A DNA stretch of 64,000 nucleotides from Candidatus Saccharimonadia bacterium (GCA_963717365.1 OY970327.1:331599-395598); one strand, 5' to 3'; positions 12,695-55,340 are shown, numbered from the stretch's first letter. Numbers and translations are program-made. Notes: generated by a model not told the origin, from the letters alone.

Positions 12695-12723
12695 TTGTAT
12701 ATAGCACAATAATGTGTTAATAT
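12695..12723 (+). promoter_or_regulatory. Candidate promoter of the 664-aa ORF
   Basis: TTGTAT (12695-12700), 17 nt, TAATAT (12718-12723). The ATG lies 11 nt downstream with no SD. Confidence 0.45.
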
Positions 12724-12734
12724 GACTTATTGAT

Positions 12735-14729
12735 ATGCCCCAAAATAATAACAATTTACGGATAGATAATCCTGATTTTCAAAAACTGCAGGAAGTAGAA
12801 GCACGCCGCCGACCCTTGCAAGATAAACTGGTAACAGATTCTTTTGCCCTGCCTGTTATGCGACAACATTATATTGATGCTGACAAAAAACTTATGCAGC
12901 AAGCCCAAGAAATTGCTTCATCACAAGATTTTCAGAATATGCTGGCTCAAACCGGATCAATTGCTTTGAGCGGTTTAAAAGAAATCGAACCATTACGAGG
13001 TGTGTTAGACGAAGCTGAAATTACCAAACTTGAAGAAATATTCTCTCACCAACTTGCTGCAGTGACTGATTTTTTTGAACGATATGATGCCGTAACTGAG
13101 CAAGCAACTAGCTTTAAAGAAGTTATGGCAAGCGGCGGTATGGCTGTGAGTCAAACAGTAGAAGTAGATGCTGAGCCGAAACAGGAAACAAAAATAGACG
13201 TATCTCAGCCTGCAAAACAACCCTATAAAAGAAAAATACCTCCTGAGGTTATAAGGTCCACTGAGGATGACCCTAAAACTGAGCTTGTTGTGGAGGTAGT
13301 GAAAAAAGGCATTAAGTTTAACGATAAATTGATCGGTAATCATTATGTAGGCACTAATAAAAATGCAAAAGTACAATTGCTAAAAGGGGCTTCCACGTTT
13401 AAATATGGGTCTGAAAAAAAACCTGCAGAACTTTTTGACATAGCTTTCCCAGGAGAAACATATAGTGCATCGAGGATACGAGACGCAATTAATGCAATTA
13501 ACAGTTATGCGTATCAAGCATCAGGCAAAATTATATTTAAAGATAACGGGTTAGCAACAACGGCCCGAGCGTACACAATAAACCCATATATAACCCTACG
13601 AATGGTTGATAGCCCGGCTGAAACTACCTCTCCAGCGGCGTTGCCCAGAGATATGGAAAGTGCAAAGTCAGCCAAAACTGTAGAATCACCTTCTCATATC
13701 CAGTCACAATTGGAAGCGTTTGCTGCTAAGGATTTGACAGCAGCGGAAGCATATATTGTCGCCTTGCATCTAAAGCGGTTTAACGTTGTATTAGACGCCT
13801 GTGGACTACCAATCATTACAGATGAACTGCTGAGCACTTTTAGCGCAACCCATATACCTGATAATTCACATATGCGGGGTAATGCCCAAGCTATTGGGGA
13901 AAGTCGCACTATATCAGTCAAGAAATTACAGGCGTTATTAGATGATGAACAGAAGTTTTCAGAATTTATAACTAATTCTCAACCTGAAGATCCATTATTC
14001 CAATTTGTTGAATATTTGACAAAAGCTGCTGGTGATGATGGTCTAGAGCTTATTAACTTACTTATGAAAGCTAAGATTTGTAACGAGTCCAAGTTACGGC
14101 CTAATGGCGGCGGGATTGATAAACTAGTACGCTTCACCGTAGTTGACGAACAAGATCGTATTATTTTTCCGATAGAACATAATCAAATAGGAATTATCTT
14201 AAAGGCTTTACCTGGTCACGACCAACCGATTCTTTCTGCCCCTGGCTTGTCAGACGAAGCAGACACAGCCGAAGGTTCAAAAAGTTTAGAAGAAGTTCCA
14301 GGCAGAGAACTTGTTCCCACGCCGGCTGATACTAGTAGCAACGCTTTATCTGCTTCAAAAACCGAAAAGGTATTGAGTTCAGCGAGATTAGAGTTTAGAG
14401 GTTTTATTTCCCGTAAGGCAAATGAGTTTATTGAGACGGGGTTTGATCCGAATAAAGAATTTGGCAGAGAACAGATTACCGGTAAAATCAGAGGATTTAA
14501 TTCCAATACAGTTGGTAAGGCATGGGAAAAAGGAAAAATTGGTCCCGAAGATAAAGCAAACAGTGTATACACAGTTGCTGATGTGATTAAAATACTCGCC
14601 TACAACAATCAAAGATGGAGTAATTATATGAAAATTAGAGGCAATCAAAAAACTGTTGACGAAGATGTGGCACGAACTGTCGCCCTAATACAGAAAAAAT
14701 TTAATAAAGCTAATTCACGGCATGTCTAA
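12735..14729 (+). CDS. Large hypothetical protein (664 aa), first gene of an island splitting rpsJ from rplC
   Basis: Long uninterrupted ORF. No motif I can assign. Mixed helical/acidic composition. Confidence 0.7.
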   Translation: MPQNNNNLRIDNPDFQKLQEVEARRRPLQDKLVTDSFALPVMRQHYIDADKKLMQQAQEIASSQDFQNMLAQTGSIALSGLKEIEPLRGVLDEAEITKLEEIFSHQLAAVTDFFERYDAVTEQATSFKEVMASGGMAVSQTVEVDAEPKQETKIDVSQPAKQPYKRKIPPEVIRSTEDDPKTELVVEVVKKGIKFNDKLIGNHYVGTNKNAKVQLLKGASTFKYGSEKKPAELFDIAFPGETYSASRIRDAINAINSYAYQASGKIIFKDNGLATTARAYTINPYITLRMVDSPAETTSPAALPRDMESAKSAKTVESPSHIQSQLEAFAAKDLTAAEAYIVALHLKRFNVVLDACGLPIITDELLSTFSATHIPDNSHMRGNAQAIGESRTISVKKLQALLDDEQKFSEFITNSQPEDPLFQFVEYLTKAAGDDGLELINLLMKAKICNESKLRPNGGGIDKLVRFTVVDEQDRIIFPIEHNQIGIILKALPGHDQPILSAPGLSDEADTAEGSKSLEEVPGRELVPTPADTSSNALSASKTEKVLSSARLEFRGFISRKANEFIETGFDPNKEFGREQITGKIRGFNSNTVGKAWEKGKIGPEDKANSVYTVADVIKILAYNNQRWSNYMKIRGNQKTVDEDVARTVALIQKKFNKANSRHV

Positions 14730-14778
14730 TTAATTGACTAAGCGTCAAGAAGAAATTATAGATAATTATAAAAAACTT

Positions 14779-14807
14779 TTGCATTATACATATATTTGTA
14801 GTATAAT
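14779..14807 (+). promoter_or_regulatory. Candidate promoter of the 392-aa secreted protein gene
   Basis: TTGCAT (14779-14784), 17 nt, TATAAT (14802-14807), inside a very AT-rich spacer. Confidence 0.5.
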
Positions 14808-14863
14808 ATATAACAATAATATCAATATCATTAACAGTTGAAAGAAATGACAGAATTATAAAT

Positions 14864-53182: not shown

Positions 53183-54469
53183 TTGTTGGGAAGTCTGGTC
53201 GACAAATATTCTTTTAGGAGTGCCGGTTTGCAAGACAAAATAAAGAGACTAGTAGCTAAAACGTATCCAGCTAAAATACCGGCTATTCTACGGATATTCA
53301 TGAAAGATGAGGCAATCGGGGGCAAGTTGATACTAGGCGCGGCCATTTGTGCTTTAGTAGTTGCTAACAGTCCGCTTAGACATGTATACGAAACTTTTTG
53401 GCACCAGGGTTTAAGTATTGGAGTGAACGAATCAACTATTACGATGGATCTTCGACACTGGCTGAGTGAAGGCCTGATGGCACTGTTTTTCTTAGTTGTT
53501 GGTCTTGAAATAAAGCGAGAAATTATTAAGGGTCATTTGCGCCATATTAAGTCGGCAATTCTACCTATAGGAGCCGCGATTGGCGGAATGGCTGTGCCGG
53601 CTCTACTGTTTTTGGCGATTAATAATGGCTATCCTGATAACGCCAAAGGCTGGGCTATACCGATTGCAACCGATATTGCATTTGCACTTGCCGTCATTAG
53701 CCTGCTTGGTAATCGAGTGTCCTCGTCATTAAAAGTTTTCTTGCTAACCCTATCTATTGTTGACGATATTGTGGCGATTCTAATTATAGGATTGTTTTAT
53801 GGTGACGGATTTAAAATATCGGCGTTGCTTCTAGCCTTATTAATTGCAGTGAGTCTTGCGGTTTTCAGCCGAAGTAAATTGATGAATACATTTGTCTTTT
53901 CTATTCTCGGAGTTGGGCTATGGATTACTGTATACAAGTCAGGTGTTCACGCGAGCATTGCTGGCGCGCTTTTAGGATTCTTAGCACCTCTCAGTGCCAA
54001 TGGAGTTAGAGTATCTGTGGCAGAAAAAATTGAAAAACTGGTTTTGCCGTCATCTACTTTTTTAGTAGTGCCGTTATTTGCTTTTGCAAGCTTCGGAGTT
54101 ACATTTTCAACCGAAAGTCTGGCGGCGTATGGCGCATTTCCTCTCATGCTCGGGATTATCTTAGGTCTCGTTGCCGGGAAAGTAATTGGTATCAGTTTAA
54201 TATCACTTGCGCTAGTAAAATCAGGTAAGGCATCTCTGCCAGCTGAAAATACAGTATGGTCGCAGTTAATGGGCGTTGGGTTCGTGGCTGGAATAGGATT
54301 TACTGTTTCGGTGTTTATTTCCGAACTTGCCTTCGAGGGGCAACCCTTGCTAATAGACGCGGCAAAAATAGCAATTCTAGCGGCCTCGACAATTAGTGCT
54401 GTCTCAGGTTATTTATTCCTGAGACATCGCCACAGGGTTCATCGAATTCTTAATACCGAAATAAATTAA
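53183..54469 (+). CDS. nhaA: Na+/H+ antiporter NhaA
   Basis: NhaA-like N-terminus (...EAIGGKLILGAAICALVVANSP...), GLEIKREI motif and about 12 TM helices. The start (TTG 53183) is uncertain. Confidence 0.85.
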   Translation: MLGSLVDKYSFRSAGLQDKIKRLVAKTYPAKIPAILRIFMKDEAIGGKLILGAAICALVVANSPLRHVYETFWHQGLSIGVNESTITMDLRHWLSEGLMALFFLVVGLEIKREIIKGHLRHIKSAILPIGAAIGGMAVPALLFLAINNGYPDNAKGWAIPIATDIAFALAVISLLGNRVSSSLKVFLLTLSIVDDIVAILIIGLFYGDGFKISALLLALLIAVSLAVFSRSKLMNTFVFSILGVGLWITVYKSGVHASIAGALLGFLAPLSANGVRVSVAEKIEKLVLPSSTFLVVPLFAFASFGVTFSTESLAAYGAFPLMLGIILGLVAGKVIGISLISLALVKSGKASLPAENTVWSQLMGVGFVAGIGFTVSVFISELAFEGQPLLIDAAKIAILAASTISAVSGYLFLRHRHRVHRILNTEIN

Positions 54470-54502
54470 ATATAGCAAAAGTAGCTTTAATACGTTTTTG
54501 CT

Positions 54503-54577
54503 TGGCAGGGGCACGAGGAATCGAACCTCGATCTACGGTTTTGGAGACCGCTATACTAGCCGTTGTACTATGCCCCT
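54503..54577 (-). tRNA. tRNA-Trp (anticodon CCA), CCA encoded
   Basis: Manual cloverleaf: acceptor AGGGGCA/TGCCCCT, anticodon arm GCGGT-CTCCAAA-ACCGT, T arm CGAGG-TTCGATT-CCTCG. Confidence 0.9.
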
Positions 54578-54680
54578 ATAGTGCGATAGCAGGTAAAATT
54601 GTAACAGATTGAAGTACTATTTATAAATTAGCTGGCAGTTCGTTAACAAATTATGTATTATCTGGTATACAATATATGGA

Positions 54681-55340
54681 ATGAGTCTGACAAAACTTAC
54701 CCCCAGCAAAACCTTCATATTGTTTCTGTATGGCTTTCCAGGATCAGGCAAAACAGCTTTCGCCAGGCAGCTTGCCCAAGAATTAAACGTCGCGCATCTC
54801 CAACAAGACCGACTGAGTCATGAATTATACGGCCAGAACAGCGATAAAACCGCCAAGCCAAGCCGTAACGCCATGAACTATATGACCCGTGAGTTTTTAC
54901 GAGCTGATGTATCAGTTATTTACGATGCAGATGTATATAGACTAGCTGAACGTCGTCATATGCGTGATGCAGCCCGTCAGACTAAAGCCATACCGGTACT
55001 AATTTGGCTGCAAATAGACCCGGAAACAGCCTATATGCGCGGTCAAAAACGCGACCGACGTAAGGCCGATGACCATTATGCAAAAGAGTACACACCGGAG
55101 ACATATGAAGCAGTACTGCATAATATGCAAAATCCTGACAACGAAGATTATGTGGTTATTAGCGGTAAACATACCTTTCATACGCAACAAGCTGCGGTAT
55201 ATAAGAAATTTTATGAACTTGGTATTTTTACGCCAGCGCAACTAAGTCAAAACATAGCGAAGCCAGCCCTAGTTAATTTAGTGCCGCAGGTTCATAACAG
55301 TCGGGTAGACTTGAGTCGGCGCAATATTCATATCAGGTAA
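54681..55340 (+). CDS. P-loop ATP-binding protein (AAA_33/zeta-toxin-like kinase fold)
   Basis: Walker A LYGFPGSGKTAF near the N-terminus. TACAAT (54668-54673) lies 7 nt upstream of the ATG, with no SD. Confidence 0.6.
   Translation: MSLTKLTPSKTFILFLYGFPGSGKTAFARQLAQELNVAHLQQDRLSHELYGQNSDKTAKPSRNAMNYMTREFLRADVSVIYDADVYRLAERRHMRDAARQTKAIPVLIWLQIDPETAYMRGQKRDRRKADDHYAKEYTPETYEAVLHNMQNPDNEDYVVISGKHTFHTQQAAVYKKFYELGIFTPAQLSQNIAKPALVNLVPQVHNSRVDLSRRNIHIR

Follow-up and report, generated by a model that had tools for sequence, protein, structure and literature searches.

Promoter boxes placed at the start codon point to leaderless initiation of many first-in-unit genes in a Saccharibacterium

Introduction

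In the group C genomes defined with GeneMarkS-2 (Lomsadze et al. 2018), a Pribnow box lies 6–8 nucleotides (nt) from where the first genes start and Shine-Dalgarno (SD) sequences stand before the others (PMC6028130). This organization is reported there mainly in Actinobacteria and Deinococcus-Thermus, and in the main text of that paper no genome of the Candidate Phyla Radiation (CPR) or of the Saccharibacteria is named. Here we examine a comparable arrangement in a 64-kb stretch of contig OY970327.1 (hereafter the window; GC content ~44%), which we assign below to a Saccharibacterium. An earlier note, made from the DNA alone, had listed twelve starts in it, those of ten named genes and of two micro-open reading frames (micro-ORFs), at which a -10 promoter box ends 6–12 nt before the ATG; all twelve were present at the given coordinates when read back from the sequence (Table 1). 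We propose, with a probability of roughly 0.8 and on the evidence of the DNA, that many first-in-unit genes of this organism are leaderless or near-leaderless, being transcribed from -10 or extended -10 promoters placed at the ATG.

The mechanism is a known one and the lineage a new one—leaderless initiation appears to be undescribed in Saccharibacteria. Our searches of the full-text literature for “leaderless” together with any of the four terms Saccharibacteria, candidate phyla radiation, Patescibacteria and Parcubacteria gave only incidental co-occurrences (for example, in reference lists) and no description, and a preprint on the TM7x transcriptome makes no mention of transcription start sites (TSSs), untranslated regions or leaderless transcripts. 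A 2025 promoter survey draws on 188 TSSs of N. lyticus (PMID 35975994), the one Saccharibacteria TSS set that we saw cited, without going into the length of leaders.

Results

A -10 box at a fixed distance from the ATG

The upstream regions were scored by a loose criterion, namely any TANNNT ending 6–12 nt before the ATG, and by the occurrence of good, TATAAT-like hexamers. Both were applied to the first ATG of long ORFs: 66 ORFs in the window and 250 genes in a sample of relatives comprising 256 kb from 17 other Saccharibacteria metagenome-assembled genomes (MAGs), whose loci were fetched around the gene for a purF-like amidotransferase. This first-ATG analysis replaced a raw scan of every TANNNT-k-ATG opening a long ORF, which was swamped by the coding periodicity of in-frame internal ATGs.

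A scan of -10-to-ATG distances reveals a sharp peak at 6–8 nt. In the relatives, TANNNT is found 29, 19 and 16 times at spacers of 6, 7 and 8 nt, as against about 8 times at each other offset (64 versus 24.5 expected over the three spacers, P=2e-11), and the good hexamers stand out further with 42 occurrences versus 7.3 expected (P=9e-19). In the window itself, there are 7 good hexamers at these spacers versus 1.3 expected (P=5e-4), while the loose motif yields 9 versus 5.9 (P=0.14) and, at spacers of 9–12 nt, 7 versus 7.8. Hence, the recurrence of the geometry noted earlier exceeds chance at 6–8 nt for the good hexamers in the window and for both criteria in the relatives, and falls short for the loose motif in the window alone. 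The peak is not an artefact of the TAA and TAG stops that the choice of a first ATG might bring along because no excess of this kind is seen at the in-frame offsets 0, 3, 9 and 12.

A first alternative is that AT-rich intergenic DNA supplies the boxes as chance matches, with start codons chosen so as to favor them. TANNNT is indeed present at ~3% of upstream offsets, such that about one-quarter of genes would match by chance over the seven offsets, and the counts of the loose motif in the window alone are, as seen above, not significant. This leaves unaccounted for the sharp, offset-specific peak in independent genomes, with P values down to 9e-19, as well as the promoter features enriched at the peak, the retention of the placement in orthologues and the specificity for ATG described below; moreover, a Leuconostoc control locus (L020) shows the geometry in 0/17 genes. 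We regard chance as effectively refuted by the spacer peak, the enrichment of the TGn extension and the ATG specificity.

The box as a promoter element

At the peak, TATAAT (15), TATACT (10) and TATAGT (5) are the most frequent hexamers, whereas the control offsets present a flat mix. The extended -10 element (TGn preceding the hexamer) accompanies 19/73 boxes at the peak (26%) versus 10/240 controls (4%; P=4e-7). Counted by spacer from 6 to 12 nt, there are 9, 6, 4, 7, 2, 2 and 4 TGn boxes, as against ~0.6 per offset elsewhere, that is, 34 in these seven offsets versus 18 in the 28 others. The same promoter type also precedes tRNA genes. The conformity to the sigma-70 -10 consensus, the TGn extension and the occurrence before non-coding genes mark the box as a promoter element.

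The TGn extension also bears on a subgroup of four genes that had been listed with longer spacers of 10–12 nt. As a search of metagenome contigs found no relatives of the 507-aa gene of this subgroup, we turned to the enrichment of TGn, which at spacers of 9–12 nt is found in 15/48 boxes versus 18/292 controls (P=3e-6). The 664-aa, 507-aa and 311-aa genes carry it and so retain their place; the 333-aa gene does not and is not individually supported. The members of the subgroup with TGn are best read as having real promoters, which would give leaders of about 3–5 nt.

In the case of the -35 region, the hexamer is no more frequent at the peak than elsewhere (8% versus 7%). The promoters hence look -10-driven; we base our promoter calls on the -10 region and count the -35 hexamer as evidence only at sites with full matches. 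Such near-perfect promoters precede the purF-like gene (TTGGCA-17-TATAAT), rpmG (TTTACA-17-TATAAT) and micro-ORF A (TTGACA-18-TATAAT); these full -35/-10 pairs, at 40726–40698, 42815–42843 and 32205–32234, match the consensus at 11–12 of 12 positions.

Two proposed modes of initiation

Counting as a strict SD core any GGAG, GAGG or AGGA located 4–18 nt upstream, we found none at the twelve listed starts, in keeping with the description given of them earlier. More generally, leaderless-type starts carry the core in 0/9 cases in the window and 3/61 in the relatives (3/70 pooled), as opposed to 26/57 and 82/189 for the remaining starts (108/246 pooled), the background being 14/316. Internal operon genes and ribosomal-protein genes had been described as SD-led by contrast; this holds insofar as the core precedes 19/36 internal genes of the window versus 4% of the background, with the ribosomal-protein gene rpmG forming an exception.

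The geometry is biased to the first gene of a unit: in the window, it is seen at 8/35 first-in-unit genes versus 1/36 internal ones (P=0.012), and in the relatives at 43/136 versus 18/118 (P=0.0017). It is further specific to ATG. When all candidate starts lying within the first 90 nt of a long ORF are considered, the spacers 6/7/8 are represented 22/20/17 times before ATG, with no peak for GTG (2/1/2) or TTG (0/2/0). As leaderless translation depends on a 5'-terminal AUG, a peak confined to ATG fits the leaderless mode.

A second alternative takes TAnnnT as an A/U-rich non-SD translation signal in a leadered mRNA, akin to the ribosome-binding site (RBS) of Bacteroidetes-like “group B” genomes or to an S1-binding enhancer. 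The box does lie at an RBS-like distance, it adjoins an SD sequence in certain trpS orthologues (see below), and it comes with no enrichment of a -35 element. However, its consensus corresponds to the sigma-70 -10 hexamer and includes TGn, several full -35/-10 pairs are present, the internal genes are preceded by a canonical SD, and the box is biased to first-in-unit genes, whereas group B motifs precede all genes. We consider a translation signal of this kind very unlikely, and the group B RBS in particular was rejected on account of the SD at 19/36 internal genes of the window and the bias of the motif to first genes.

The spacer peak, the promoter hallmarks, the first-gene bias, the ATG specificity, the absence of the SD and the conservation in orthologues thus agree on the two modes that had been suggested for this organism: SD-led initiation at genes inside operons and, at many first genes, a leaderless or near-leaderless start. 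The accompanying suggestion that the latter mode is limited to monocistronic or accessory units does not stand, for rpmG has the geometry, and the P-loop kinase gene and, with an ambiguous start, trpS head three-gene units (kinase/YgjP-like/histidine-kinase and trpS-rluD-holB, respectively). Nor are the translation-related genes uniformly SD-led: in addition to the leaderless-type rpmG, infA appears to have a short SD-less leader. The position of its promoter implies a leader of about 11 nt and thereby a putative third type of start site beside the leaderless and SD-led ones. The individual starts are collected in Table 1.

Table 1. Start sites, contrasting starts and micro-ORF modules of the window. 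Numbers joined by hyphens to motifs are spacers in nt; positions given for an ATG are those of its A.
Feature	Coordinates	Strand	Arrangement
Nudix	26223..26261	-	TTGCAC-17-TAAACT-7-ATG 26225
purF-like amidotransferase	40687..40726	-	TTGGCA-17-TATAAT-8-ATG 40689
201-aa gene (g201)	42371..42408	-	TTGTCG-16-TGaTATAGT-7-ATG 42373; directly 3' of tRNA-Tyr
TPR	37427..37445	+	TGgTATAAT-7-ATG 37443
DUF1801	52479..52493	-	TACTAT-6-ATG 52481; upstream TTG 52517 rejected
P-loop kinase	54663..54683	+	TGgTATACAAT, read as TACAAT-7 or TATACA-9; ATG 54681
664-aa gene	12715..12737	+	TGtTAATAT-11-ATG 12735; predicted leader ~3-5 nt
507-aa gene	49880..49902	-	TGtTAATGT-11 or TAAATT-6; ATG 49882
311-aa gene	49992..50013	+	TGgTATTAT-10-ATG 50011; in-frame TAA two codons upstream
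333-aa gene	51968..51988	-	TACTAT-10 or TATACT-12; ATG 51970; no TGn, weakest member
321-aa gene (beyond the earlier list)	41734..41748	-	TATACT-6-ATG 41736; 31 nt after upstream gene
rpmG (L33, Pfam Ribosomal_L33; beyond the earlier list)	42815..42854	+	TTTACA-17-TGaTATAAT-8-ATG 42852
trpS (beyond the earlier list)	34568..34583	+	TATAAT-7-ATG 34581; spacer reads AAGGTAA
First gene of 3-dmu-9_3-mt family (leadered, SD-led contrast)	52538..52574	+	TATAAT, 28 nt containing AAGGAG, ATG 52572
rpsL (SD-led contrast)	6715..6731	+	AAGGAG 5 nt before ATG 6729; typical of str/S10/spc/alpha operon genes
infA (SD-less, short leader)	27903-27953	+	TTTACA-18-TGcTACAAT, 18 nt to ATG
Micro-ORF A module	32205..32372	+	TTGACA-18-TATAAT-7-ATG 32242; 26-codon ORF 32242-32322; intrinsic terminator 32349-32372
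Micro-ORF B module	34098..34270	+	TTTGCA-17-TGaTATTAT-7-ATG 34134; 27-codon ORF 34134-34217; intrinsic terminator 34241-34270

Orthologues and start codons

Three genes of the window have orthologues (45–69% identity) in the fetched loci, and in each case, a box near the start is kept while its sequence and flanks drift. Among the nine TPR orthologues, eight show a TATAAT, TATACT or TACAAT box 7–9 nt before the ATG, the box abutting the aligned ATG in locus L014; most Saccharibacteria orthologues of the purF-like gene have TAnnnT 6–10 nt upstream; and all six orthologues of the P-loop kinase gene display TGnTATAC 7–10 nt from the start.

That the geometry helps fix start codons, as had been proposed, finds support in independent automatic gene calls on Logan contigs of run ERR12037361, which agree for nine genes in giving the same product lengths (201, 321, 477, 215, 344, 507, 311, 333 and 130 aa) and reject the longer TTG starts at 37398, 49972 and 52517. 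In addition, all nine alignments of the TPR orthologues begin at residue 1. In the purF-like gene, there is an in-frame TAA inside the TATAAT box, and the catalytic cysteine of the Ntn (N-terminal nucleophile) amidotransferase is residue 9 (MALEAREKC); these two features leave as the start either the ATG or a TTG two codons later, at most 14 nt from the box.

Under the proposed mechanism, sigma-70-type promoters, mostly of the -10 or extended -10 type (TGnTAnnnT) with a weak -35, would direct the RNA polymerase to start on the A of the ATG or at a distance of about 0–5 nt from it. An mRNA made in this way would have neither a 5' leader nor an SD, and its 5'-terminal AUG would be bound directly by the ribosome with the initiator tRNA, dispensing with the contact between SD and anti-SD. 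Ordinary SD/anti-SD initiation would remain in use for the downstream genes of these operons, as well as in the large operons of ribosomal-protein genes. We infer the positions of the TSSs and the mode of ribosome recruitment from the established work on leaderless genes in Mycobacterium, Deinococcus and E. coli.

Several observations weigh against this mechanism or qualify it, in addition to the loose-motif counts in the window and the unremarkable -35 frequencies already given. Over their first 40 nt, leaderless-type and SD-led genes are not set apart by their predicted folding energy (-4.1 versus -3.9 kcal/mol, P=0.38). As rpoB and rpoC carry apparent single-base frameshifts (see below), any single spacer could be off by one base. 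A further case is that of trpS: its orthologues in loci L004, L006, L001, L015 and L007 carry AAGGAGG, AAGGAG, AAGGA, GGAG and AGGA, respectively, in the interval from the conserved TATAAT to the ATG, where the spacers measure 9–13 nt (e.g., TATAAT-AAGGAGG-AATT-ATG), while no functional SD is found at this place in the window or in loci L002, L005 and L014. A purely leaderless model leaves these SD sequences unexplained, and in view of them and of the AAGGTAA spacer in the window the start of trpS is ambiguous; the pattern suggests either dual transcripts or an evolutionary switching between the leaderless and SD-led modes.

These orthologues, with a strong SD between box and ATG, also lend themselves to a third alternative, in which the main transcripts originate farther upstream, either at other promoters or as read-through products of preceding tRNA or protein genes, yielding leadered SD-less mRNAs, and the ATG-proximal boxes are secondary or internal promoters. 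Read-through transcripts are possible for g201 and rpmG because both directly follow tRNA genes, the start of rpmG adjoining the tRNA-Thr(ggt) gene, and likewise for trpS, which lies 41 nt after the upstream ORF; the geometry at 18/118 genes of the relatives classed as internal points the same way. Against this, read-through explains neither why the box is fixed at 6–9 nt, with its placement conserved in orthologues, nor the specificity for ATG, nor how SD-less internal starts would be recognized when other internal genes use the SD. We therefore judge upstream starts to be an unlikely explanation and retain leaderless or near-leaderless initiation from promoters at the ATG as the probable one.

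The micro-ORF modules

The two micro-ORFs belong to modules A and B, which are paralogues of ~185 nt each that can be aligned throughout, with good promoters and with strong intrinsic terminators 25–40 nt past the stop codon. They have a 27-nt motif in common that occurs nowhere else in the window. A search for the micro-ORF motif in metagenome contigs and in the fetched loci yielded no relatives, leaving just the two copies. S-x-G-G-F-F-x-x-F-E-stop is common to both encoded peptides, and the codons for it differ at four third positions, all of them synonymous, by which a translated peptide is weakly favored. Downstream of module A are a 307-aa gene with no assigned function and an M15 peptidase gene, and downstream of module B, a 79-aa ORF and trpS.

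Modules A and B could be peptide genes, small RNAs or attenuators. Like the Phe and Trp leader attenuators, each lies upstream of a gene and comprises a promoter, a short ORF in which Phe codons are clustered (FFxxF) and an intrinsic terminator, and they give sub-threshold Rfam matches to Phe_leader (RF01859) and Trp_leader (RF00513) with E=0.03–0.08 and 27–29 bits versus a gathering threshold of 55 bits. The sequence GGCGGYTT, which provides the GGFF codons, duplicates the 3' arm of the terminator and could in principle pair with its 5' arm; no such antiterminator pairing appears in the minimum-energy folds of the modules. Unlike those attenuators, the ORF itself has a leaderless-type start and the downstream genes are not those of Phe or Trp biosynthesis. 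A role as leaderless leader-peptide attenuators is hence possible but unsupported.

Gene content and lineage of the window

The window contains, in succession, rpoB, rpoC, rpsL-rpsG-fusA-tuf, rpsJ, the S10/spc/alpha ribosomal-protein operons, secY, infA, trpS, the purF-like gene, four tRNA genes, rpmG, secE, nusG, rplK and rplA. At the gathering threshold, Rfam finds in it the four tRNAs and nothing more. The closest relatives of the purF-like protein, at 57–69% identity, come from Candidatus Saccharibacteria and Saccharimonadales MAGs. Furthermore, in the region 25283–26409, rpsE abuts rplO with no rpmD, the gene for L30, between them, and between rplO and secY, there is the Nudix gene on the opposite strand. 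The ribosomal protein uL30 is reported to be missing from all CPR bacteria (PMC9297842). The relatives of the purF-like protein and the missing L30 gene together identify the organism as a Saccharibacterium (TM7, CPR/Patescibacteria); no close representative of it was present in the genome collection searched. One of the fetched loci, L008 (CAVPXS010000003.1), bears the label “uncultured Flavobacteriaceae bacterium”, but its purF-like protein shares 60% identity with the Saccharibacteria query from end to end; mislabelling or contamination of this MAG is probable.

The S10 operon, which is usually contiguous, is interrupted between rpsJ (S10) and rplC (12311–16674), where two AT-rich genes of 664 and 392 aa lacking Pfam matches and a 95-aa ORF lie. 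On the plus strand at 61603–63927, after a dCTP deaminase-like gene, a 774-aa ORF contains both a thymidylate kinase domain and, in two stretches, a match to the Thy1 (ThyX) thymidylate synthase domain and appears to be a thymidylate kinase/ThyX fusion. The rpoB gene is spread over three reading frames, with breaks at ~1912 and ~2156, and rpoC over two, with a break at ~4070, the Pfam domains continuing across the breaks. Judged by conserved RpoB and RpoC motifs, each break presumably reflects one extra A (CTT-A-GAT, CTT-A-GGC and GAC-A-GTC). These frameshifts are either assembly indels or something unusual; a search of the protein collection found no record of the 475-aa RpoC fragment.

Discussion

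The geometry may extend beyond the Saccharibacteria. In two loci from other CPR lineages that were fetched by chance and are the only two such sampled, from a Parcubacteria genome (L016) and a Kaiserbacteria genome (L018), it is seen in 8/25 genes versus 0.94 expected (P=7e-6), and several of these genes have a TGn box. We tentatively raise the possibility, to which we give slightly less than even odds, that leaderless initiation is a general and possibly ancestral trait of the CPR (Patescibacteria). Were it widespread there, the CPR would constitute a third large bacterial clade with leaderless genes beside the Actinobacteria and Deinococcus-Thermus, and the annotation of gene starts in thousands of CPR MAGs would need a leaderless model. 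Start annotation is already affected in the present case, where several of the TTG and GTG starts obtained by taking the longest ORF in the window are wrong. The proposed mode also bears on the interpretation of the reduced ribosomes of the CPR and of the loss of the anti-SD in some of its lineages, the motif being reported as absent from about half of the Parcubacteria and as lost in a subgroup of them (PMC9297842).

On the practical side, a -10 box fused 6–8 nt from the ATG may suffice for expression cassettes in the newly tractable Saccharibacteria. Saccharibacteria have their known hosts among the Actinobacteria, which are the classic phylum rich in leaderless genes, and this pairing raises evolutionary questions.

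Among the described systems, the Bacteroidetes-type (group B) genomes resemble the present one in having many genes without an SD; they differ in that their upstream motif, which is no promoter, stands before every gene, whether internal or first, whereas here a -10 box is the motif and the internal genes have the SD. In Deinococcus deserti (de Groot 2014, as summarised in PMC6028130), the -10 box likewise adjoins the start codon and the majority or a large minority of the mapped transcripts are leaderless; those genes have been confirmed by differential RNA sequencing and proteomics, whereas the Saccharibacterium case is deduced from its DNA. The likeness to the Actinobacteria is extensive. 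In M. tuberculosis and M. smegmatis (Cortes 2013 as cited in PMC12641261; PMC6028130), TANNNT similarly lies 6–8 nt before the start of first genes, and their leaderless genes have no SD and a weak -35, account for one-quarter to one-half of operons and coexist with SD-led internal genes. What sets the present organism apart is that it is a low-GC, ultrasmall CPR bacterium in which TGn boxes are prominent and the spacers reach up to 12 nt. Mycobacterial leaderless genes also use GTG, while the signal here is confined to ATG. With its localised Pribnow box and the SD elsewhere, the window matches the operational definition of the group C genomes exactly.

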